From Lophium mytilinum (taxonomy: Eukaryota): a DNA stretch of 64,000 nt. The stretch's first letter is position 1. Each line of letters begins with the position of its first letter. The position numbers and the translations under genes were made by a program. The notes beneath the pieces are model-generated. The model was not told the DNA's origin. It did no database searches and saw only the letters and a program-made list of their open reading frames with translations. Below, piece by piece: positions 5,134 through 44,474 of this stretch. The stretch is from positions 1,819,599-1,883,598 of the forward strand of contig MU004190.1 in assembly GCA_010093605.1 (NCBI GenBank). The letters are read 5' to 3'.

Positions 5134-5580
5134 ATGTCCACAGCTACCCACTCAACTCAAACGGGCTCCTGTCAGTGCGGCGCCGTCTCGTACAACCTCA
5201 CCGGCACCCCCCTCAGCTCTTTTCTCTGCCATTGCACCAACTGCCGCAAATTCACTGGGTCCACATACCAAGCCAACGCGATGTATGCCGGACGCGACTC
5301 TCTCGTCGTCACCAAAGGCAAAGACAATCTCTCCGTCTGCGCGTACAACAACACTACCTCCGGCAACACCATTCGGCGACATTTCTGCAAAACTTGCGGA
5401 TCCCCGCTCTTCATCTATCCAGACGCGAATGCGGGTATCGTGGTTGTGATGTCGGGAGGGCTGGATGATCCTGCGGCATTCGCGCCGACGAGGGAGTGTT
5501 TTGTGAAGGATAGGTTGGCGTGGGTGACGCCAATTGAGGCGGCGCAGTTTGAGACGGTGCAATCGCTACCGAGGAAGTAG
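5134..5580 (+). CDS. GFA / CENP-V (Mss4-like) zinc protein
   Basis: GSCQCGAV...CHCTNCRK...RHFCKTCGSPLF is the classic GFA/DUF636 cysteine pattern. Single exon, 148 aa. Confidence 0.93.
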   Translation: MSTATHSTQTGSCQCGAVSYNLTGTPLSSFLCHCTNCRKFTGSTYQANAMYAGRDSLVVTKGKDNLSVCAYNNTTSGNTIRRHFCKTCGSPLFIYPDANAGIVVVMSGGLDDPAAFAPTRECFVKDRLAWVTPIEAAQFETVQSLPRK

Positions 5581-5689
5581 GGGAGATGGAGTGGAAATCG
5601 AAATGCGTACTTCAGAGCTGGAGGATCAGGGTTCTTTGGAGACGCTTAGGATAGTTTTGTAGCACGCTCAGCAAGCATTCTCTCCCGTG

Positions 5690-7212
5690 CACCTCGGTAC
5701 GTCAATTCGTGTCCCCCGGTGGGGTGCCGGTGCACGGGCTGTTTACACCCCCTTTCCTTCACAACAACTAAAACAATAGCTACATTCACCAAATTTTCAC
5801 CCAATTGCTTCCTAAATGGCTGATTTTGATCCTGGCACGCCTAAGCGCCCAACTAATAAGCACATTCCTTAAACAGAGACCCGGGTTCGCTATTTTAATG
5901 CTTGTAATAACCTAGAAAGGATAAGAAGCCTTAAAGAGATAGCGGGGTCCTATAGAATTACTCTAAGAACTAGCAAGAGATAGAGGGTAGAAAGGAGAGA
6001 GTTTAGGAGGCTAGTATATTATTAGATAAGAGTTATAAAGTCTACTAAGAAAGGCACTAAGCTAGGGCCTCGGTATTCCATTTCTAAGAAGGCTATTTAC
6101 TAGATTATTAATCCATCTAATTCTATAAGAAGAATACCTCTTTCTATAGTGCTAGAGTATTTTAATATTAAAACTAATACTAGAACCTTTAAGAATTTAC
6201 TTAAAAGGCACTATGCCGGGCGCTATAAATATGCTAAAACTATAGCCATTTTAAATAATAATAAGGGCTACTATTATACCTATAGAGAGATATATAAGAA
6301 TAAGCTAATAGAGGGGTACTAGAACTAGGTTCTATTTACTAATAAAGCCTATATAAATCCTTAGAGAATATAAAAGCCTATAGTTATTTAAATAGAAGAA
6401 ATACGCTTTAAACTAGAGAATTTAGTATTAGAATTAGGGGGTATTATAGAAGTTACCCTTTATATAGCCGCTTAGATTAATTAGTATACTAAGGTAGAGA
6501 GAATTATCTTTTATAATAATAAAAATAACTATCTTTCTAAGCCTAAGATGCCTAGAAAGCCCTTACGCTTAAAGTATAAGATAGAGAAAAGGTATCTTAA
6601 TACTATTAAGAACTAGAAGGCTAGAAAACCTTATAATATTAAAATAAAACTAAAAGAAAACGCTATAACCTAGAAGTACTATACTAAGAAGGTGCTTTCT
6701 TACTATACTAAGGCTATTTACGCCTTAGAGGATTCTACTTTCCTTCTAGAAAAAAAGGCTAATAGAAGATAGTATCTCTAAGAGAATAATAACCCTTTCT
6801 ATAGTATAAGAAATAATACTTCTCTTCTAGCTAAATTTAAGAGGAATAAGTATATTCTAATTTACTAGCACCCTGCGTAGTTACTAGATCTTAATCTAAT
6901 TAAAGCTATATAGCTAATTCTTAAGAAAAGAGTAAAAACTTAGGTATGTAAAGCTTATAATATTAAGAGACTTTAGAAGATAATTTAGAAGGAATAGAAA
7001 GCTATTTCTTAAGAAAGAATCTAGAATTTAATTATAGAGATGCCCTGGCGCTACTATAAGGTTATAAACTATAGTGGAAAGATGGTAAAGAGTAGAAATT
7101 AGTGAATGTATATTTAGTTGTGCTATGAAATGCCTGTGCAGGCGTTGTTTTAGTGTTGTTGGCACCCCCCGGCACCCCACGCCCGGGGGACACGAATTGA
7201 CGTACCGAGGTG
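5690..7212 (+). mobile_element. RIP-inactivated IS630/Tc1/mariner-superfamily DNA transposon with terminal inverted repeats
   Basis: Perfect inverted repeat GCACCTCGGTACGTCAATTCGTGTCCCCCGG (5689-5719 vs 7183-7213), extending imperfectly inwards. The interior is AT/TpA-rich. CCGTG direct repeats lie at 5685-5689 and 7213-7217. Confidence 0.93.
5816..7105 (+). pseudogene. DDE transposase (Tc1-like, DD38E) destroyed by RIP
   Basis: One frame runs from ATG 5816 to TGA 7103-7105 with many TAA/TAG stops. Reversing C>T/G>A changes restores WDQVLFTDEAH (D at 6341), LQEDNDPSHG (D at 6785) and HPAQSPDLNPIE (E at 6902). Confidence 0.9.
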
Positions 7213-7565
7213 CCGTGCGATCGTGCGTACACCTGTCTGCCACTGTTTGAGGTGCCCCGCAGGGTTATAAAAATCTAAGGGCGATGTTGAGTTTCGAGTG
7301 GCTTGAATTAGGCTACCTCTTGACTGAAAATTTCCTCATGAACCAGGCTACCCCTTACAGTGGCATCCAATGCGCAGCATTGTAGCTACGCAGCAGTAAA
7401 TCTAGGTGCCCAGCGATATGGTCTACTTTTGTCATCCTTAGTAGGCTTAGCGTGCCTCACGCGCACAGACCCACACTAAGCCCTTATAGCCTCGCGTCAC
7501 CTCCACGCCGCCTTCAAAACAACACACAACACGAGACAAGCTATCAATTCCATCAACAGCCTACA

Positions 7566-8858
7566 ATGGATGAGAAAACCGCTACTAATGGCCTCGGCGT
7601 CACTAACCGCAAGCGCAAGTTTTCAGAAGACGACGATGGCTCGTTCGGGTTGGTCACGGATAGCTCCGTCTTTAACAGCAAAGAGCGGGCCCTCAAGGTC
7701 ACGAAGTTCGCCAAGATCGCCGACATCGATCGCGTGCGTGCGAAGAAGTACCTCCGCGTCAACAGAAACGACCTTGACCTCGCCATAAACCACTACTTCG
7801 ACGATCCTGAACTGTTCAAGCCCATGGACCCTATTACCATCGTTTTGCGAGGCTCTGACAAGTTCACGCTGCCTCACGACCTCTTCATCTCGGCGTTGGA
7901 CAGGTTTGACTCCCTCGTCGAAGCAGGCGAGATCCTCTACAGCCCATCCGATCCGGAACGAACCAAATACGATGGCTTTGAAGTAAATGTATCCCCGCCC
8001 ACTTTATCTCTAATCAGTGTTTACCACCAATCGCTCCACAGTTCGAGTTCCGCATCGTGCCGGCAATGGGCTCGAAACCGCTGCTCGCCGCCAACGACCC
8101 CGGTCGCTCCCATCCTCAAGGCCCATTCGTCAACCCCGATCCCGCTTTCGTCCTGGCCAACGTTGGCACAGCTCACGTCTTGGAACTCAACAAGTTCTGT
8201 GTCTTTCGGCCCATGCTCATCCTGCATACCGCTCAATACTCCGAGCAGGAAGACGACCTGGACGCTTCGGACTTGACGGCGGCATGGCTAACCCTCCAGA
8301 CCATCAAAGAGCCGCAAATTGTCCTCTACAACTGCGGTGTCGACTCCGGCTCATCGCAAGGCCATAAGCACCTCCAGTTCTGGCCGCATCCGGATCTAGA
8401 TAACCCGTTCTACCTGCCTCCAGACGGCAAAGATCTTCCGTCAGGCAAGCGATTTGCCCATTTGCCAATAATCCATATGCTGACAATCTTCAATAGATGC
8501 CCCGACTATGCTTCCAGAGTTGCCGTACCAGCATTGGGTTGTCGGCATCCCTCCAAAAGCCACGGCGGTTGGCCTCATCGAGTCCTACTTTGTGCTGCTC
8601 AAGAAGGCGAGAGAGGCGTTGGGAAAAGAAGATGGAGAGGCTGCAGCCTACAATCTGCTCTTCACTCGAGTCTGGATGATCATTATCCCCCGGACCCAGA
8701 AGGGCTACGAAGGTCTTAATGCCAATGGCGCGGGTATGCTTGGATCGGTGTGGGTAAAGGATAAGAAGGAGCGTGAGGAGTGGACCAAGCATGGTATGAC
8801 GGAGCATCTGACGCGCTTGGGGCTTCCCGTCGCGAATGAGCTTCCAGTTGAGAAGTGA
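7566..8858 (+). CDS. APA2: Ap4A phosphorylase / ATP adenylyltransferase with N-terminal UBA-like domain; 3 exons
   Basis: Motifs LNKFCVFRPMLIL, YNCGVDSGSSQGHKHLQ (HxHxQ) and YNLLFTRVWMIIIPR..NGAGMLGSVWV. Introns are ~7983-8041 (GT-AG) and 8445-8496 (GC-AG). The N-terminal segment VTKFAKIADIDRVRAKKYLRVNRNDLDLAINHYFD resembles UBA_4-type domains. Confidence 0.88.
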
Positions 8859-9029
8859 TGTGGTTCTACCGGGGCTGCGGAAGTGGTTGGAGTGGTTTCT
8901 TGGCATAAGATACCCGGTTCTAGCTACGGTACGAGTAATTAGATGCTGTCTGGATTGTGCATCATGTCTGCGCACTAACCAGACTTTCTGAATGCCTCTT
9001 CACCATGGTTTGTGATGATGTTTCCTACT

Positions 9030-9852
9030 TGTCAATCTCAGTTGGAACTTCAAAGTGCACGACGTGCTGCCGCCGTCTGAAGCACCCTGGCATACTTTCA
9101 GAAATCATTATAAGAGAATTCTTCGGTGATTTGAAAGATTGGAAAAACAATTGGGGCACCTCATACGGTATCATGTAGGTGTACGCGTACAAGAAAGAGC
9201 CCAGTACAATGTCGCTGTCTGAAGTCCCTCGGCATATTGTTGGAAGCCGGAAAGAGAAGTATTTTCAGTGTTTTAAAATATGGTTAGGGTACTTCAGACG
9301 GTGTCGAACAGTGGCAGATAGATGAGATGTAAGTCAATTTCAATCAGGGAGTTCAAAAGGCACATCCTGCTGTCGCTGTCTGAAGCCTCCTGGCATACTT
9401 TCGGAAACCGGAAAGAGATACGTCCTCGGGGTTTTCCATAATAGTCAGGGCACCTCAGACGGTATCAAACAGCAGCAGAAACGTGACGAATTGAGTTAAC
9501 CTCAGTCAGGAACTTAAAGGCGTACACTTGGGCAGTGTGCTGCCGCCGATTGAAGCGCCCTAACATACTTTCAGAACCCGGAAAGAGATATATCTTTGAT
9601 GTTTTCAGACTGGTCAGGGTACTTCAGACGGTATCACCCATGAGTGGACAACTACAAAACTGAGTCGAGCTTAGATAGGGCCTTCAAAGTGTAAACCTAG
9701 GCAGCGTACTGCTACGGTCTGAAGCACCCTGACATGCTTTCGGAGACCAGGATGAGGTGCGTTTCCAAGGTTTTGAAACATCGGGAAACTGGCCAGGGCA
9801 CCTCAGACGGTATCAAACAGCAGTAGAAAACTGATAAGTGAGTCATTTTCAA
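9030..9852. repeat. Degenerate tandem array of five ~140-170 bp units, each with an internal inverted repeat
   Basis: Left arms near GCCGTCTGAAGCACCCTG at ~9072, 9214, 9375, 9545, 9715. Right arms near CAGGGYACYTCAGACGGTA at ~9153, 9285, 9446, 9615, 9794. The loop motif CATACTTTCRGAAACCGGAAAGAG and the linker motif GTCAAYYTCA..GGAACTTCAAAG are also shared. Confidence 0.9.
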
Positions 9853-10056
9853 CTATTTTAATTGTCCCACGTCGTACCGCTAACCACACGTTTCGTGCCA
9901 GGAACCCAGAACAACCGCCAGAAGGCACTATTACCCTCAAAAGCACAATTAGTCGCACCTCAAGAACCGCCAAAGCTGCCATAAACCACTACCCATCCTC
10001 CTCAATATCTTACAAGTCTGCCAAAACAACCCCATTACGTCCTTCAATGGTTAGAC

Positions 10057-12123
10057 TTAGTACCCAAACGTGGCCCTGTCGTACGCGGATCGCTGTGCTG
10101 TATCTGACAACACGTCGTACGCGTGGTTGATTATTGCCATACGCGCTGTGGCCGACTTGACCTCCTCCGGGGGCACTCTATCCGGATGATGGGCCATAGA
10201 GAGCTTACGGTATGCGGCCTTGATCTGGTCTTTCGTTGCCCTCCTTGTGACTCCCAGCAAGTCGTAATTAGTCGGCTGCGTGGGCTCGCACGCACGCGGA
10301 GGCCCCTGTTGACGTCCACCCCTGGGAGCCTGCTGAGCACGCGGAGGTGGCCCGTGTTGACTCTCCCAACGGCGACGCTCCTCTTCTGCCCACTGCTGGT
10401 ACCGCTTTGCCTGCTCCTCCGCCCTCGCGGTCTCTTTCGCCTTCGCCTCTTGTGCCTCCTTACGGCGCTTATGGTCCTCTTCGTGACGGTAGCGCTCCTG
10501 CATCGCGGCCCACTTGCGGTTCCTCTCTGTCTGGGCCTTTTCCTGTTTGATTCGGGCCTCTTCGTCAGCGCGCTCACGCTTCCTGATGTCTTCGCTCAAC
10601 ACTTTGTCCCAAGTGCTGCTGATCCTGTCCGCTGCTTGCCGCATCTTCTCTTGCTTTTGGGCGTTCTCTTGCCTCCTCTTGAGGGCCTCCTCCTCTTCCT
10701 TCGTGTGCTTCTCGGCTCGCGCCTCCTGCTCCTTCCGCTCCTTCCGCAGGGTCTCCTGCACCTCTTTCTCCATCTTCCGCCACTCTTGGTCTCGTTTCTC
10801 CGTCTCTTTCGTCGCCTGCGCCCCCTTTTCCTTGTCCATTTTGCGGTCACTCTTCTCCGGCGCACCATCCAAAGTCTCAATCAGCACATCGTCGGATGAC
10901 AGAATCGGGAAGGAATCCATGGGCTTCTTCCTCGTCGAGGTACGTCCAAACTTTGCGAGCTCCTCCAAGTTATCGAACTGGCGGCGTAGCTCAGGATCGA
11001 TCTCCAATCCTTCGTGCAGGTTTTGTGAGGTCTCGTTCTCGGATTTCTCGTCGTGGAAAGCAGCACGCGGTGGGAACTTGGATTTGCGTGCGTTGTTGTT
11101 CGTGGTCTTGCGCAGAAACGGCAGCGGCGATGGCCAGCTTTTCGAAGGAGCGTCCGGCGGAGTGCGCTTCGGTGCAGCATCGTCTGGAACCTCGTCGTCT
11201 ACGCGCTGGTTGTGGAAATCTGCTGGAATGAACCGGGCTACGCCGCAGTCGTTAGCACTGTACCTATAGCGCGGTCTCTTGGGCGCCCAGCTCTGGAAAG
11301 CCGTATGCGCACCACCACGTCTCTTCTTACCGCGAGCTTTCTTCCGCTTGTCTTTGCCCTCCGCTTCGTCCCACATGCTGCGCGCTTTTTCCCGCATCTT
11401 TAGAGCTTCCTGCTCTTCCTTGGCTAGCTGGACGACATGCAGAGCACCTTTCTGAGCCCGGTCGAGGGCTAGGAGTCGTTGCCGCTCCTCGCGCTCTTCC
11501 GAGTCGCTGCGGATGAGGATAGACACGCGCTGATGGCGGCGGTCTCGATCGAAGGGCGGGCTAACGTACGGTCGGGTGGAATTCGCGGCTTGGGAGGAGA
11601 AAGGTTTCGCGTCGGGAGAGCGTTTTTCGAGCTCTTCAGAGTCACTACAGATGACGATGGGCTCGCGCTGTTGGCGGTGGCTGCGATCGTTGGGTTCGTT
11701 AGCCATGGTTTGAACTGGATGAACGACGCTTGATGACGAGGCGGGGAAGTGCTGTTCGCGCTGCTTGGAGTCGCTGCGAATGAGGATGGACGCGTGCTGC
11801 TTGGGCTCGCTGTCATCTCTGGGCTGGTGTGCGCTGCGTCGCAGGGGATTCATGGGTGCGGAGAACGGCGACGACACAGCAGTGACGTAAGAAACGAACG
11901 GATTTGCTCGCGGGGATGAGGCAGGGCATTCCAATGCAAGGACAGCATTGATGCGAGACGGGACGCCAAATTGGGTCTTACTAGCAGCATTTCGGACCGG
12001 GCGCGAGGTGTCATCGGCATCGCCCATGGTGATGTCGCCTTCGGAGTCTCTCTCAGAGTCTGCTTCGTCGGCTGAGTCGAACTCCTCGAAGAAGGGAGCT
12101 GTGTAGTTGTCTCGGCGATTCAT
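10057..12123 (-). CDS. DnaJ/Hsp40 class C protein with C-terminal J-domain, coiled-coil and disordered N-terminus
   Basis: 688-aa intronless ORF ending NYDLLGVTRRATKDQIKAAYRKLSMAHHPDR...MAIINHAYDVLSDTAQRSAYD, a J-domain with the HPD motif. A charged E/K/R-rich helix precedes it. Confidence 0.9.
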   Translation of the reverse strand: MNRRDNYTAPFFEEFDSADEADSERDSEGDITMGDADDTSRPVRNAASKTQFGVPSRINAVLALECPASSPRANPFVSYVTAVSSPFSAPMNPLRRSAHQPRDDSEPKQHASILIRSDSKQREQHFPASSSSVVHPVQTMANEPNDRSHRQQREPIVICSDSEELEKRSPDAKPFSSQAANSTRPYVSPPFDRDRRHQRVSILIRSDSEEREERQRLLALDRAQKGALHVVQLAKEEQEALKMREKARSMWDEAEGKDKRKKARGKKRRGGAHTAFQSWAPKRPRYRYSANDCGVARFIPADFHNQRVDDEVPDDAAPKRTPPDAPSKSWPSPLPFLRKTTNNNARKSKFPPRAAFHDEKSENETSQNLHEGLEIDPELRRQFDNLEELAKFGRTSTRKKPMDSFPILSSDDVLIETLDGAPEKSDRKMDKEKGAQATKETEKRDQEWRKMEKEVQETLRKERKEQEARAEKHTKEEEEALKRRQENAQKQEKMRQAADRISSTWDKVLSEDIRKRERADEEARIKQEKAQTERNRKWAAMQERYRHEEDHKRRKEAQEAKAKETARAEEQAKRYQQWAEEERRRWESQHGPPPRAQQAPRGGRQQGPPRACEPTQPTNYDLLGVTRRATKDQIKAAYRKLSMAHHPDRVPPEEVKSATARMAIINHAYDVLSDTAQRSAYDRATFGY

Positions 12124-37221: not shown

Positions 37222-38583
37222 ATGAATTCCATGATCCGGGGTGCCGTGACTTCACGGCGCTTCGTCTTCGCCGCCGTTACCGTTATTCTTCTTGTATTAT
37301 TCTTCAACGCCATTCCCTCGGGTTACGGTTACCTAGATCCCAAGCCAGAAGTCCCAAATCAAGGGACCGCCCCGCCCAAACCACCACCCAAGAATGCAGA
37401 ATCATCACCATCACCATTACCATCGCTAGCATCATCAGCATCATCGCCACTAGCGCAACCCTCAACACCAGCAGGAACCCCGCAGCCCTCAAACCAGGCC
37501 GCCGCCTCGCCTTCGACCCACCCTTCGTCCTCCACCTCCCCTACCTCGCCCTCCTCGACCCCCTCAGCGAAGAAACCCGACAATGAGCTCACCAAAACCG
37601 CCATCCTCGCCTCCCTCCAAAAAGAAGACACAACCTGGCTCGCCGCCTTCCACCCAGAAGTCCACGCCGCCATCTACGTCGTCGACAACACCACCGCGCC
37701 CTACCACGTCCCCGCCAACAAAGGCCACGAGGGCATGGTCTACCTCACCTACCTGATCGACCACTACAACTCCCTCCCGGACGTCATGGTCTTCCTGCAC
37801 GCCCACCGCTACGCCTGGCACAACCCCGACCTGCTCGGCAGCGACGCCGCCGAGATCATCGATAAGATTAGCGCGCCGTATGTGCAGCGCATGGGATACG
37901 TGAATGTGCGGTGTCACTGGGACCCCGGCTGCCCCGCGTGGATGCACCCGCTGGCGCCAGAGACCGAGCGCACCGACGTGTTTAAGCCTGAGGAGGTCGA
38001 GCTGGCGGGCGCGTTCCGTGAGATCTTCCCTGGGGAGGAGGTGCCGGAGATATTGGCGCAGCCGTGCTGTGCGCAGTTTGCGCTGTCGGGGGACGCGGCG
38101 AGGAAGATCAGCTTGGAGCGGTATACGGCGGTGAGGCAGTGGTTGTTGGATACGAAGCTGGATGACGCCATTTCAGGAAGGATTTGGGAATATTTGTGGC
38201 AGTATCTGTTTACCGGGCAGCCAATAGCGTGTCCGAGGATGGATTTGTGTTATTGCGATGGCTTTGGGGTGTGTTTTGGCGGGGAGAAGGGGAAGAATGG
38301 GGAGCAGGGGATGAATGAGTATTGGGACTTGCGGAATGAGAAGGGGAAGTTGCAGGCGGCCTTGGGGCAGATTGTGGATGAGAAGGAGGATGAGGATGGG
38401 AAGAAGACGAAACCCGTGTTGACGGATGCCGAAAAGCATATTGTGAAGGATCTAGAGGCGCAGATTAAGGATTTTGAGGATCAGTTAAATGAGAAGTTGA
38501 AGAAGGCGAAGAAGAGGGGCACGGATCCGAAGCTTCGGGCGGAGGACTGTGGGAGAGATTGGAAAGAAGGGGATGGGTTCTAG
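37222..38583 (+). CDS. DUF3431 family protein (type II membrane)
   Basis: N-terminal TM and a Pro/Ser stem are followed by AIYVVD..PANKGHEGMVYLTYLIDHYNSLPDVMVFLHAHRYAWHN, GYVNVRC.WDPGCP, PCCAQFALS and SGRIWEYLWQYLF. Confidence 0.9.
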   Translation: MNSMIRGAVTSRRFVFAAVTVILLVLFFNAIPSGYGYLDPKPEVPNQGTAPPKPPPKNAESSPSPLPSLASSASSPLAQPSTPAGTPQPSNQAAASPSTHPSSSTSPTSPSSTPSAKKPDNELTKTAILASLQKEDTTWLAAFHPEVHAAIYVVDNTTAPYHVPANKGHEGMVYLTYLIDHYNSLPDVMVFLHAHRYAWHNPDLLGSDAAEIIDKISAPYVQRMGYVNVRCHWDPGCPAWMHPLAPETERTDVFKPEEVELAGAFREIFPGEEVPEILAQPCCAQFALSGDAARKISLERYTAVRQWLLDTKLDDAISGRIWEYLWQYLFTGQPIACPRMDLCYCDGFGVCFGGEKGKNGEQGMNEYWDLRNEKGKLQAALGQIVDEKEDEDGKKTKPVLTDAEKHIVKDLEAQIKDFEDQLNEKLKKAKKRGTDPKLRAEDCGRDWKEGDGF

Positions 38584-39369
38584 ATGGATGTGGGAAAGCG
38601 ATGTCTTGCATATGGACGGCGTTCGGGCGTGGGCGTCGGATCTACAGAGTATGTGTGCATATAATGTTGCATCTGGTTGGAAAATCATGAGATCTACCTC
38701 GCAGGTAGGCCTGTATTTTGTATTTTTCTTTATCTACTGAGTAAAATGTACAGCATATCACGGCATTCTTATGATTCAGAACACTAGACAAAGTTCAAGG
38801 CAGTGTTCATCAAGCTACCCGTTGTGCAGGTCTGCAGGTCGGAGCGGTGATAAGGCAAGCACGCCTATGGCAATGACGCCTATGGTTTAGGTGCGCATCT
38901 AACCCTGTCGAAGCTCCTCAGGCAGTACTAAGGCTTATTGAAGTCTACTGCTAGAAGTTTCAACATCCTTACAATGCTTGCGCGGTAGTCCCTACCTGGA
39001 TAATGGGCGGTAGTGGGGTGAATCACGTGATGGCTTGGTCAACACTAGGATTGACTTGCATCCATAGATATCAGCCTTCCGAAGGCTGACCGGAACTTCC
39101 TTTTCAATACACATAATACGCACGTGTTATCTCTGTGCCTTGCTCCGACGCTAGGAAACCTCCATCCAATCTAAGGCAGACTCGTGTTGTTGCGATCCGG
39201 ACGCCGGCATGGAGGCTGTGATTTCGCCTTGTCCATGTAGGCAAACACAGTGGCTCAACAGAGCGTCTTATCACTGTTAGCCTACTATTTTGTCGCTCCT
39301 CGTCCTCCTAGCCTTCCACCACTTTCGATTCAACCTTTCCACCTCGGGTTTCGTTCATGAATCTGTGCA

Positions 39370-41573
39370 ATGAGTACGAGTCCAGGAAATGCGGTCATGC
39401 AGGTTTCCTCTCGCTGTTCTACATGCCTCACATTGGAAAAGAGTGGACAGTCCTCGATATCATCACTGCGGAACTCTGCTAAAAAGTGCCATTTCTGTGA
39501 ATTACTTCGAGATATCATTTCCCAAGCGCATTGTATAAACACTGATGAAGTGGATGGGGATGTACTTATGATCGCGAGGAATCTACCGATGGTGATTTAT
39601 GTTCACGAAATGGAGAAGTCGCTGAAGTACAATTATTGGCTTGAAATCTTCATGTCCCCGAACCCAGGTATGTTAACGGTGCCTATTGTGCGCATTTCTA
39701 GCTATCAAGTGCCCGGCTAGCCTATTCACTGTAGCTATGTAATAGTGTTGGTCACTATCCCTCTTCCGAATCCCACCTTCTAAAACGTTCTAGTATTGTG
39801 TAGCCTGACCTCACATATCGCTGATATTGGCTAGGCATGGAAGTTGAAAGGAGATATCCACATCTCGCGACACGTCCACTCGTCGAATCCCACGCAGAGT
39901 CCGCAGCATGCCTCACAAAGGCTTGCCGATGGTTGAAGGAATGTATAGAGAACCACATAGATTGCAACATCCACGAGCAGCATCCCGATATGCCCAAGCG
40001 AGTCCTCTACATACAGGCGTGCCCCAATCCCCAGGAGCCATATATTCTTCGCCTGATCAGTACCGACGGTGGAAAAGATCCCTATGTTGCACTGTCGCAC
40101 TGTTGGGGACTGGAGCAGCCGCTTACCACAAACACGGCTTCTCTCGACTCGCGGATGAATGAAATAGTATGGTCCCAGTTACCAAAAACCTTTCAAGATG
40201 CCATCAAAGTGACCGCTACCCTCGGGTATACATATATATGGGTAGATTCTTTATGCATCATCCAGGATTCGCAAATTGACTGGGAGGAACAGTCCGCACA
40301 GATGGCGACTATCTACGAGAAGGCCGTTGTTACATTAGCGGCTGCATCTGCCACTGGCGATACCGAGGGTTTCTTAGCACAACGACCAGAGCGGATAAGT
40401 GGATCCGCTCTCCTCCAATCCTGTAATCCCGGAACGTCCCCGCTGTCTGTGTATTTTCGAGAGCGTCTCGAACACTACGAAGAGCGTTTCGAACACTACG
40501 AAAGCCTTGATCCCTTGGAGACGCGCGCGTGGGCTTTTCAGGAGCGCGTCTTGGCCACTCGAGCCTTGATATTCTCCCGCAACGAGCTGCGCTGGGAATG
40601 CAATACCACCCAACAATGCGAATGTGGTGGTACTGATACCGGCCGTAAAAAGGCTAGGGGAGCATCATATCCCTACAGTCGCAGCCTGCTCTCTTCGAGC
40701 ACCCCTCGCTGTGATCTGTATCGACATTGGTACCTCGACACTGTTCGGCAGTATTCAAGGATGTCGCTTACTCAAGCAAGCGACATACTTCCGGCGCTCT
40801 CAGGTATCGCGCATGTGTTCAGCAAACTCACTGGAGCCGGGTATTTTGCGGGCATCTGGCAACCCGAATTCCTGCACGGCTTGTTATGGAAGCCTCCGAG
40901 GTGGACGGAGCCGTCAATACAGCCCGCCTATCGGGCCCCATCGTTTAGCTGGGCATCTACCGATGAGGAAGTCTCTTACCCGTATGATCTGCTTAGTGAA
41001 AATAAGATTTGGACCGACTTGACTGAGGTCGTGGACATATCATGTACTCCAGCTGGCCTAGATCCATTCGGCCAGCTTGAGGATGGCTATACAATTCTCG
41101 AGGGGCCTTTCTTTCCAGCCTGGATACACTTCCCTCCAATACCGGATGGAAGCTTAACGCTCACCTTTACGCCAGATCTTTGCACACACCTTTACGCCAG
41201 ATCTTTGGTTATCACAAGAAGGGACCACTGTGTTTTTAAACCCGACACGATGCTAGCTGTTTCAGAGATCCCTGAACTCGCTGTTACCAACCCCCAGTTC
41301 CCTTCCTCGTCTCCCGTCGTTCATCGTGCGTATGAAGATTCCGAGGAGGCAAAAGGCATTCACATGTGTTACTGCCTATATCTTTGTTTGAACAACCGCT
41401 TTACAGTTCTTTCAGATCATTACTGCCTGATCCTTGGCGGCTCGGTCCGGAAACCAGGTGCGCTCGAACGGCTTGGTCTGTTACATATCAGCGGTTCTAC
41501 ACATAGTCCAGGTGTGGGATCGTTGGCTTTAGCTTCGAAGGACGCAATCCGAACACGAGTGACGATTGCATGA
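39370..41573 (+). CDS. Heterokaryon-incompatibility (HET) domain protein
   Basis: YVALSHCWG, LPKTFQDAIKVT..YIWVDSLCIIQDS..DWEEQSAQMATIYE, PLETRAWAFQER, YFAGIW..LLW and YRAPSFSWAS. The N-terminal exon has CxxC..SAKKCHFC. Intron 39668-39834 keeps the frame. Confidence 0.92.
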
Positions 41574-42245
41574 ATAAATCAAGAAGATAGCAAGAAAAGC
41601 TTGCAGTTGAAGTGCTTCCTTTTCTAATTCCTGCCTTGCATGTACCTTTTTTCCCCTCGTTCTTCCCTTTATCTACTTTTCACGCGGCTTTAGGTCCGAG
41701 TCTGCGTGATACCTATCACTGCGTTCCCGCTCGTTCTTGCTTTCAGGTCTGCGCTTTCTTCGTAGGATTTCATCTGGCGCATACTGAGATTAGCGTATCG
41801 TCAGCCATATATTTAACCTTCTACAAGTTGTGAATGAGGAACGCCCGCCCAAATCGACATTGGCGAGTCATTCGGGAAGCTTTCTACGCGGGCTTTGCGT
41901 TTCTGAAATCTCTTCTTCGAGTTCGATGGTGTTTTCACGGAGTTTTGCGTCCGGAGCCACACGAAGTTGAGACGTCAATGATCTGGTGTTCAAGTGATGT
42001 ATGATTCCAGCACTCAATCCAAGTTTCCTCCTACCAAATTCAAGTCCCTTCATACCTCAGTATATTACGCCAGAAAAAAGAGCGACGTTATGTGAGCTCA
42101 ACTAGAAACCCGCCCAAGTGCCAAGGCGCCAGAACATAACACCCAGAAATCGCGAAACGAGAGTGACACGAGCAGAAACATATTGCCGAGATTGAACGCC
42201 GAAAAGAAATAGATTCCTTTTCGCATACCTGTCCCCATAATCTTC

Positions 42246-44474
42246 TCACAACCTCGCCCGAAGCACAGGGTCGATCCACTCATCCCACCCGGATTTATAC
42301 ACACCACCATCCTTCTTCGCTTTCACGTTCATAGGAATCTGTCTGGTCCAGTTCATCAGCGTCTCGTACGCATTCCCGTCTTTCATGCCGATCGCGCTGC
42401 ACAGGGATGCGTCCGTGAAGTCCCAAGCGTCGGTCAGGGCTACGATTTCCGGCTTCAGCTTATCGAGCAGGCTATTGACTAAGTCGCGGATGGTGGATAG
42501 CTGCGATAGCGACAGATACCCATCTTCGACAAAGCTGATGGCATTGATAGATGCTGGGTTTGTGATCGTAGACAAAGCGAAGAGGGAACGCAGATTGACG
42601 AGCACGGTCTTCATCGATGAAGACGGGAGGGCCGAGGTGTGCGATATGAATTCTTGCAGGACGACGAACTCGATATGAGCTCGCGCAGCACTGATGATGT
42701 TCATCATGTGCTCATTCCAGGCCTCCGCTGGGGGCAATGAAGAACTCCGAAGAGCGGTATATGCACCAAAGATGAGCCGAAGCGCGCGATGGCGGTAGAT
42801 AGATAGCTGAACATTCGGATCGAGGAATTGCTCACCGCGCGCGGAACACGGCTCATGGATAACGTGTACACAGTCATCTGACGCTCTCCACGTCGCGAGG
42901 GGACTCGTCCAGGAGAAAAGAGCCCATCCATCTGCTACGTACTTCAACTTCGGATCGATGGATTTCCCTTCAACAAGGGTGTCGATGAGCTTGAATAGAT
43001 ACCGACCGACCTGCTGCCAAAGAACATAATTCTCGCCCTCAAAGGTTGCGGTGGCAGTGACGCTGGCAACGATCTCGGGAAGACCGCTGGTCATGAGGTA
43101 GCCTTGCCCACCGCAACACTTTCGGGCGTCTTCGGCGCCGTCAGAGGCTGTTTGGGTAGCCCACGCCTTGAGACCCGCGGCGAGAGTATGGTTGTATGGT
43201 AGCCCTCCATGATTTCCGGTGTCTTGTTGCGTGCGAAGGGTTGCGTATTCCGCATCGCATGTGCGAGAGGCAAAGAGGATAGCATATGACTTCGAGGTGA
43301 GTGTAAGGAGGCGATAGTATTGAGACTTGTAGTCAACAAGAGCTGATTCGGTGGTGGCAAGACCGTTAGGGCCCAGGCCCTGCTCGCGGACGATCGAGTA
43401 ACGAGTGGCGATGGTGATAGCTTGCGCGAGTTGGAATGCGACGGCACGCACAATCACGGTCCGAACATAGACAAGAGTTGCGTACGAGAGCTTGGCATGC
43501 GGGCTTTTCTTGTATTCGCCTTCAGGACTGACTGATGCGTTCCCCATGAGCATATCCGACCTGGGAATCCTGACGCTCTTGAAGGTAGCATAGCCGTTGC
43601 ACGTGCCGTTATAGGACATCTTGAGTCCAATATCACCCAGGTCGATTCCAGGCAGAGGCAATCCGTCTGACAGAGACCGAAACTGCACCATGAAGAGGTG
43701 TGGGCCGTGATCTTTGTTCCGGATGATCAGACGGGCTACAACAATGGAATGAGTGCAAGAAAAGCCAATGGCCCCAGGCCAGAACTTGGTGGATGAAAGC
43801 GTCGGGGAATGAATAACGAATTCCTCCGTTTCTGTATCCAAGGTGGCGGTGGTTTCGATGCCTCGTACGAAGCTTCCGTGGCCCAATTCTGTCTGGCAGT
43901 ATGCGCCGTTGATCTTCCCCGACTCCGCAAGAGGTAGCCATTTGGCTCGTTGTTCGGCCGTGCCCTGAAGTCTCAACGTTGGAATGAACATGACAGTGGT
44001 CAATCCAAAGGGACTGGCGTTGCTGAGAACATATCGAGGCGTAATATTGTGGAAAATGGTGTGCTTATTTGTGATTCCGTCCTCGAAAGCAGCCTTTCCC
44101 CACTCGAGACCTTCGTCGTAGGCTTGCTCGCGATCCATATTACCATATGAACGAGGGAGCTTGCTGGTATCTAGGGTGCCAGTGCGCCTTTCGACGCGGT
44201 TGAAGGCAGCTCTCCGTTGCTCGACAATATCAGCTCTTGATTAGCGTTGGTCAGCTTGACTTCTGAACGGAGGATGCCATTGAGGCGTCTTTGCTGGTGC
44301 TCACCCGCCATGTATCAAACACGTCAACTCGTAGGAGTGAAACGAAGTTGCCTTTCTCGCTTCATCCATCATAATAGTTTGCTTATTCGACGGTGTATTC
44401 ACGAGGTGCCTTTCCGGAAGATTCATGATCCTGGATGGAGATCTTCCGTCAAACTTGGGCGAAACAATTTCCAT
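42246..44474 (-). CDS. Peroxisomal acyl-CoA oxidase
   Basis: GAYCQTELGHGSFVRGIETTAT, KFWPG, IGLKMSYNG, ITIATRYSIVREQ, EDARKCCGGQGY and TFEGENYVL, with a C-terminal PTS1 -ARL. A short first exon (..MDEARKATSFHSYELTCLIHGG) is followed by a GTGAGC intron. The start could also be 44426. Confidence 0.93.

Follow-up and report, generated by a model that had tools for sequence, protein, structure and literature searches.

A 64,000-nucleotide stretch of the Lophium mytilinum genome (assembly GCA_010093605.1, contig MU004190.1, positions 1,819,599 to 1,883,598 of the forward strand; hereafter the window) carries a decayed transposon of the Tc1 family, whose outermost terminal inverted repeats (TIRs) are bordered by a short GC-rich direct repeat and by no TA dinucleotide. 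On balance, we favour the view that the mobile unit is the CAC...GTG segment at 5690-7212 and that its insertion duplicated a target other than TA, either 5 bp (CCGTG) or 3 bp (CGT) in length. We take all DNA between the two CCGTG pentamers to be inserted, and the duplication to differ from TA, because of three lines of evidence: a chance test on the TA sites of the window, the structure of a paralogous site, and the position of a contig end at the outer tip of the element. It is conceivable, though in our view somewhat less likely than not, that a whole fungal lineage of the Tc1 family (DD38E) has abandoned TA for GC-rich TA-less targets, with a 5-bp (or 3-bp) stagger and CAC tips. The features of the element and its target are as follows.

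5685-5689, no strand: left direct repeat CCGTG (in the 3-bp reading CGT, 5686-5688); a single equivalent pentamer is found in the paralogous site
7213-7217, no strand: right direct repeat CCGTG (in the 3-bp reading CGT, 7214-7216)
5690-5730, forward strand: left TIR, starting with CACCTCGGTA, perfect to 5719 and imperfect to about 5730, with a TA inside at 5698-5699
7169-7212, reverse strand: right TIR, ending in TACCGAGGTG, with a TA inside at 7203-7204
5816-7111, forward strand: transposase frame wrecked by repeat-induced point mutation (RIP), a single frame with 26 stops and N176, N324 and K363 in place of the catalytic triad
5669-5689, no strand: left part of the target, similar to the sequence found just before 7223 in paralogs of the flank repeat (score 22)
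7216-7386, no strand: right part of the target, a dispersed-repeat unit at 8-13x single-copy depth, related to the tandem units at 9040-9850

Element boundaries and target site

On the left side of the region 5685-7217, the sequence CTCTC CCGTG is followed by CACCTCGGTA and CGTCAATTCG. On the right side, CGAATTGACG and TACCGAGGTG are followed by CCGTG CGATC. The element thus begins at 5690 with CACCTCGGTA joined to CGTCAA and finishes at 7212 with TTGACG joined to TACCGAGGTG. A repeat finder returns inverted arms at 5689-5719 and 7183-7213, which are 31 nt long and 100% complementary, and a gapped extension reaches 5689-5730 and 7169-7213 (45 columns, 93%). The preliminary description of this locus, made from the letters alone, had reported CCGTG on both flanks and an inverted repeat that continues outward past an internal TA, and the sequence is as it claimed. 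Its 31-bp TIR corresponds to the perfect 31-nt arms but includes one base of each CCGTG, since these arms run from 5689 and to 7213. The unit from CAC to GTG measures 1523 bp and consists of 126 nt, the open reading frame (ORF) in a single frame, and 101 nt. As is characteristic of the Tc1 family, the TIRs enclose one gene in a unit within the range of about 1.3-2.4 kb.

The inner TA lies 8 nt inside each tip, and the inverted repeat stretches 10-11 nt outward past it. Palindromic arms of at least 8 nt surround none of the 2558 other TA sites in the window, where the longest such arms measure 6 nt and occur in one case. The outward extension of the TIR is therefore not a product of chance. The inner 20-mer of the TIR has two sites only in the window (none expected from 100 shuffles), and no further TIR copy is found elsewhere in the 64 kb. 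The dinucleotides directly outside the outermost repeat are TG and CC, or GT and CG one base further out, and never TA. The TA duplication at the repeat ends that marks the Tc1 family is thus absent from the one insertion examined.

The pentamer CCGTG abuts the inverted repeat on both sides. The direct repeat is in fact 6 nt long (CCGTGC at 5685-5690 and 7213-7218) and therefore admits two symmetric solutions: an element at 5690-7212 with a 5-bp CCGTG duplication, or an element at 5689-7213 (GCAC...GTGC) with a 3-bp CGT duplication. Tc1-family tips usually start with CA, which makes us lean to the 5-bp reading. A 5-mer recurs at this fixed distance at 79 of 63972 window positions (0.12%), a figure that understates the chance of a flanking match because CGTG-type motifs are repeated locally. 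Two tandem 8-mers, CGTGCGAT and CGTGCGTA (7214-7229), immediately adjoin the insertion site, and the paralog has two similar units.

As its second reading, the preliminary description had proposed a conventional TA insertion into an 18-bp palindrome, CACCTCGGTACCGAGGTG, which has no other occurrence in the window. Copies of the repeat that flanks the element on the right allow the target to be compared with paralogous sites. These copies come from the contigs of two sequencing runs, and all results drawn from the runs, here and below, apply among the contigs, loose ends and differences listed. The read depth over 7225-7301 is 1922 and 1347 in the two runs, compared with 150 and 158 in the left flank. 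Five flank-repeat contigs reach the site from the right and diverge from the window at 7216 (three contigs) or 7223 (two contigs); none of the five continues into the palindrome (TACCGAGGTG). The 30 letters before 7223 share with the left flank of the element a 9-mer, CAGCAAGCA, then CTCTC and then CGTGCG, and the 9-mer has two occurrences in the window with both strands counted. When these letters are aligned with the left flank to 5689 joined to 7218 onward, the score is 22, which none of 5000 random windows reach. An empty site that keeps the palindrome scores 13 (reached by 9 of 5000 random windows), and the window as it stands scores -5. In line with this, CGTG-type units number two in the paralog and two in the window minus one pentamer, compared with three in the window as it stands. 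Both the reconstructed target (CTCTCCCGTGCGATCG) and the paralog are without a TA, and the paralog is also without the palindrome. A TA insertion into the palindrome is disfavoured by these two observations. No run contig joins the two flanks across the element as an empty allele would, in two runs of one sample that yielded one unrelated joint.

The third line of evidence comes from the positions at which run contigs end. The contigs behave as paths of a k=31 graph: two allelic 254-nt contigs span 5792-6045, and their ends lie 30 nt from the nearest difference between copies (5792 = 5822-30; 6045 = 6015+30). Likewise, the contigs of the flanks break off at 5718 on the left and begin at 7184 on the right, beside the 31-mer common to both arms. 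The contig that carries the window's own right interior ends at 7211, where the window's own repeat would predict 7212, and the 30-mer 7182-7211 has no second occurrence in the window, the left arm included. Another genomic sequence therefore appears to share the tip. It matches for at least 7 nt beyond the inner TA and is presumably a second copy of the element. This argument reasons from the behaviour of an assembler and weighs less than the other two lines.

Further comparisons around the site were set aside. The paralogous units within the window (9146-9742) are too diverged in their interior for the site to be read. An inverted-repeat unit spanning the insertion was rejected, since the stretch at 5607 that would form its left arm does no better than the null mean (1580 of 3000). 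The heptamer GCACCTC of the element tip also occurs in the arms of the neighbouring repeat family, and a true tip common to the two was considered; the alignment of the TIR with these arms lies no higher than the 95th percentile of random alignments (score 17-18), and in the tandem repeat units conservation runs on outside the heptamer. As a separate observation by eye, the loose-end group before 7216 resembles the left flank with C-to-T differences.

A Tc1-family transposase decayed by RIP

From the ATG at 5816 to position 7111 the transposase frame is interrupted by 26 stops (20 TAG, 5 TAA and 1 TGA), and the catalytic triad of the window copy reads N176, N324 and K363 where D, D and E are expected. 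The GC content of the ORF is 0.30, compared with 0.54-0.55 in its flanks. The TpA/ApT ratio is 1.67 in the ORF and 0.58-0.72 in the flanks, and (CpA+TpG)/(ApC+GpT) is 0.36 and about 1.2, respectively. The sole AT-rich kilobase of the window sits in the element, with a GC content of 0.28 at 6001-7000 compared with 0.46-0.65 elsewhere. Of 66 columns conserved in at least 8 of 9 relatives, the window copy retains the shared residue at 32 and differs at 34, and 27 of these 34 changes are reachable by C>T or G>A alone (7 otherwise). The runs contain a second, differently mutated copy. The differences number 15 over 254 nt, 17 over 345 nt and 28, with gaps in addition, over 351 nt, and are mostly transitions (69 of the 84 differing places in X1). 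RIP has thus acted on at least two copies, and the outer ~126 and ~101 nt have been spared.

In spite of this decay, the element can be assigned to a fungal lineage of the Tc1 family. Against 1.84 billion representatives, its translation, with X written at the stops, has 205 protein matches at E<=0.001, of which the best (1.8e-41) covers residues 6-427 (422 residues). A Pfam scan of the X-read window protein itself returned no families. Among its relatives, all eight that were scanned match DDE_3 at E<=7.5e-6, and six of the eight reach the Pfam cut-off. A family profile built from 12 sequences matches the catalytic domain of Sleeping Beauty SB100X at 3.2e-26 and Mos1 at 5e-5, and the profile motifs FtDEaH, EDnDpSH and DLnpiE align to the DDE motifs of Sleeping Beauty. 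The closest intact relative, P0003 (427 aa, from Bimuria novae-zelandiae), was modelled with a pLDDT (predicted local distance difference test) of 88.1. Foldseek finds Mos1 (1.6e-10) and Sleeping Beauty (2.6e-10) as the best structural matches of this predicted structure. The full-length Mos1 alignments extend over 424-437 columns of the model and include the N-terminal DNA-binding part, and residues 18-132 of the model, N-terminal to the catalytic core, contain helices. Helix-turn-helix families are recorded in some relatives (PF13384, PF13518 and PF01527). The lineage therefore combines an RNase-H-fold DDE transposase with an N-terminal paired-like helix-turn-helix region, both features of the Tc1 family. 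The description of the element as Tc1-type is borne out by the protein matches, the DDE_3 domain, the SB100X profile match and the fold matches to Mos1 and Sleeping Beauty.

The triad of the relatives is D176, D318 and E357 in P0003 numbering, with 141 residues between the two D and 38 between the second D and E (DD38E). Relative to Sleeping Beauty, ~50 residues are added after the third strand of the core and before its first long helix. The stretch in which they lie (P0003 195-300) contains invariant FYNDE and PxKPR motifs and an additional helix in the model. Named members of the lineage come from Dothideomycetes (Bimuria, Setomelanomma and Zopfia), and further relatives appear as proteins on JGI metagenome contigs, some of ~1.4-1.7 kb and others longer. 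An invariant Ser, at the position of the target-proximal K248 of Sleeping Beauty, was considered as a cause of non-TA targeting. This explanation was dropped because Mos1 also has Ser at this position, yet uses TA.

Searches for further copies at the DNA level were negative within their scope. Pattern matches to the DNA of the relatives numbered 42 in viral contigs and 94 in genome contigs, of which none were confirmed. The sole metagenome match to the inner 20-mer (L001 3001-3020) was rejected as chance, being located on a bacterial-looking contig of 70% GC with unrelated flanks. A string search of the literature for the element tip returned an unrelated human primer only.

Alternative explanations and proposed mechanism

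The main rival to our reading is a one-off aberrant integration. Here, the ends CAC...GTG are real and duplication of TA, or of another 2-bp target, is the habit of the family, while this copy entered by a non-canonical route, for example by integration away from TA or by capture after excision at a staggered break, so that the 5-bp repeat arose by chance. Such an event would agree with the very strong prior that Tc1-family enzymes keep TA, and a single insertion is visible here. Sleeping Beauty uses non-TA dinucleotides at about 1.4% of 2,018,489 sites (PMC5801840), and a later paper of the same authors deems most of these events aberrant (PMC7987939). However, the validated Sleeping Beauty events keep a 2-bp duplication (PMC5801840), whereas TG and CC stand outside the tips in the window, and a clean 5-bp repeat lies directly beside perfect ends. 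We regard a one-off event as unlikely. An element with the ends CGTCAA...TTGACG could instead have entered the TA at the centre of the pre-existing palindrome, by chance or through site specificity, with the palindrome already bounded by the CCGTG repeats. This would place the TA exactly where the canonical rule wants it and would fit the palindromic target logos of Tc1/mariner elements (PMC5801840). The occurrence of GCACCTC in the arms of the neighbouring repeats makes an origin of the palindrome from this repeat family conceivable, and a second copy with the same outer tip would also follow from strict site specificity. Yet this scenario needs an earlier, unexplained insertion of 23 bp that brought its own 5-bp duplication and is missing from the paralogs. 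Together with the lack of comparable arms at the other TA sites of the window, the five contigs that lack the palindrome and a match between the TIR and the repeat-family arms no higher than the 95th percentile of random, this renders it improbable.

A composite structure is quite improbable as well. In this case, a Tc1-type element would be enclosed by short termini (CACCTCGG...) and mobilised by another transposase that duplicates 5 bp. Transib-type elements typically combine CAC tips with 5-bp duplications, and the heptamer shared with the nearby repeat family could hint at foreign termini. However, the unit of 126 nt, ORF and 101 nt with its uninterrupted perfect 31-nt repeat leaves no room for foreign parts, and 8-10 nt would be very short for a transposase site. 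Moreover, there is no second transposase nearby, the Pfam scan of the neighbours having returned only GFA and UBA-like domains. Finally, the CCGTG match could stem from pre-existing CGTG-type repeats, in which case the site would be rearranged or without a true target-site duplication. The tandem 8-mers at 7214-7229 are compatible with such an origin, and a hand alignment can pair the two CGTG motifs of the paralog with both flanking pentamers. But this alignment needs 13 gap positions compared with 6, and the count of CGTG units in the paralog equals that of the window after removal of one pentamer, which makes the absence of a duplication highly improbable.

A number of points weigh against the reading that we favour. 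The 5-bp and 3-bp solutions are inseparable from one insertion, since both predict the same empty site, and the local CGTG repeats raise the odds of a flanking 5-mer match. The sequencing data are two runs of one sample, probably the window's own source, and are thus non-independent. The loose-end strings are consensuses with 0.75 agreement, and the comparison sites are paralogs rather than the orthologous empty site. A contig that enters the palindrome could exist beyond those listed. The loose-end group before 7216 scores 2 against the left flank, a value that 380 of 5000 random windows reach and that is not significant. The tip-sharing argument assumes that Logan contigs break only at branches of the k=31 graph. 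At the family level, the claim is drawn from one locus with a single insertion read. Among Tc1/mariner-type families described in fungi, Trem duplicates TA in six of eight families, with no duplication identifiable in the other two (PMC2836289), and Dici also duplicates TA (PMC13469147).

Weighing these points, we retain a Tc1-family transposon with a non-TA duplication as the favoured reading. The proposal of a 5-bp duplication in place of TA, put forward in the preliminary description, is supported in part: a non-TA duplication is favoured at this locus by the paralogous empty site and, indirectly, by the contig end that points to a tip-sharing copy, and a length of 5 bp is unproven against one of 3 bp. 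In the mechanism that we propose, a cut-and-paste transposon of the Tc1 family, with inverted repeats of ~41-45 bp and one transposase gene, would have inserted into a TA-less site within a copy of the dispersed repeat. The strand transfers would have taken place 5 (or 3) bp apart on the target, rather than 2 bp apart as in canonical Tc1/mariner enzymes. Gap repair would then yield the direct repeat, either CCGTG or, with GCAC...GTGC ends, CGT. The TA located 8 nt inside each tip would be a mere part of the inverted repeat. Later, in a genome with at least two copies, RIP introduced C to T and G to A changes in the interior, killing the gene and sparing the ends. We infer that the element's own transposase normally works in this way and produced the duplication, and the length of the stagger is likewise deduced from the repeat.

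Genomic neighbourhood and comparison with known systems

The element lies between two genes, and a further group of genes was recognised at 37222-44138.

5134-5580, forward strand: GFA-domain gene (Pfam scan), with the element on its 3' side
from 7566, forward strand: UBA-like-domain gene (Pfam scan), with the element 353 bp upstream
37222-38583, strand not stated: DUF3431 gene
39837-41573, strand not stated: HET-domain gene
42246-44138, reverse strand: acyl-CoA oxidase gene

A tandem array at 9040-9850 consists of about five units of ~165 bp, each with inverted arms GGGCACCTCAGACGGTATCA and partner CCGTCTGAAGCACCCTG. The arm pattern has 8 occurrences in the window compared with 0.5 expected, and the array may be a satellite, a foldback element or a MITE. 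The unit at 7216-7258 beside the transposon belongs to the same repeat family; it is present at ~8-13x single-copy depth and has no Rfam match, and no Rfam families are found in 5300-10200. One run contig at about single-copy depth steps back by 49 (from 7326 to 7278) with one base missing at 7299, and is a paralogous or variant copy in which 49 bp of the promoter-side repeat are duplicated in tandem. Further downstream, an ORF on the reverse strand (10057-12123, 688 aa) lies in a stretch with a GC content of 0.58-0.59 and a strong AT skew. No homolog was found at E<=1e-30 among the 8000 best candidates; the ORF may encode a low-complexity protein, be specific to the lineage, or not be a gene at all. 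The DUF3431, HET and acyl-CoA oxidase genes stand side by side, a gene content typical of filamentous ascomycetes. With 94% identity to its counterpart in Mytilinidion resinicola, the acyl-CoA oxidase places the host, a dothideomycete of the Mytilinidiales, next to that species; the next nearest counterpart, that of Lepidopterella, is 73% identical.

The duplication of TA counts as a diagnostic mark of the whole IS630-Tc1-mariner superfamily, and element boundaries are set by it in annotation pipelines. If the lineage as a whole makes 5-bp (or 3-bp) GC-rich duplications, target sequence and stagger can change inside the Tc1 family, and this would be the first group of the family known with both changed. 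The lineage would then provide a natural experiment on what sets the stagger length in DDE transposases. Set beside Sleeping Beauty and Mos1, it would also serve as a closely related natural counterpart for finding the residues that fix the 2-bp stagger and the flipping of the TA bases, which is relevant to the engineering of integration preferences. In addition, annotators of transposable elements who trim at the first TA would mis-set the ends of such elements. Should the insertion be a one-off, it would still be a documented natural case of non-canonical integration by the Tc1 family. Lexical searches of open-access text turned up no description of a Tc1-family element that duplicates 5 bp.

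The element is similar to known members of the Tc1 family (Sleeping Beauty, PDB 5cr4; Tc1; fungal impala) in having one gene, inverted repeats of ~40-45 bp and a unit of ~1.5 kb, and its DDE triad and the motifs DNDPxH and SPDLNPIE align with SB100X. In contrast to these elements, there is no TA outside the outermost repeat, and a GC-rich repeat of 5 bp (or 3 bp) takes its place. The spacing of the triad differs too, with 90 residues between the first two D and 34 between D and E in Sleeping Beauty (PMC8934666), compared with 141 and 38 in the relatives of our element. For yeast, flanking sites of Tc1 are given as TACA and TGTA on either side of the insert (PMC9977792).

Integration away from TA is shared with the non-TA insertions of Sleeping Beauty, which are likewise made by a Tc1-family enzyme. 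Unlike our element, with its repeat of 5 or 3 bp, these are rare (about 1.4%) and have a 2-bp duplication where validated (PMC5801840). A precedent for a duplication of other than 2 bp in the superfamily exists in the TBE elements of Oxytricha, Tc1/mariner transposons with a 3-bp 'ANT' duplication (PMC4724952, Table 3), the same length as our 3-bp reading (CGT). TBE elements differ in their A/T-centred ANT targets, their three genes and their telomeric repeats.

The preliminary description had also pointed to a likeness with Transib/RAG-like elements. These share the CAC tips, and a 5-bp duplication (CCGTG around CAC...GTG) may be a further point in common, but a 3-bp reading fits the locus equally well. 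The likeness ends there, and of the Transib heptamer only three letters (CAC) agree with the element tip. Transib and RAG belong to another superfamily, whereas the protein, profile and model matches of our element are all to Tc1/mariner, with none to RAG1-like cores. By sequence and by fold, the enzyme is thus Tc1/Sleeping Beauty-like.

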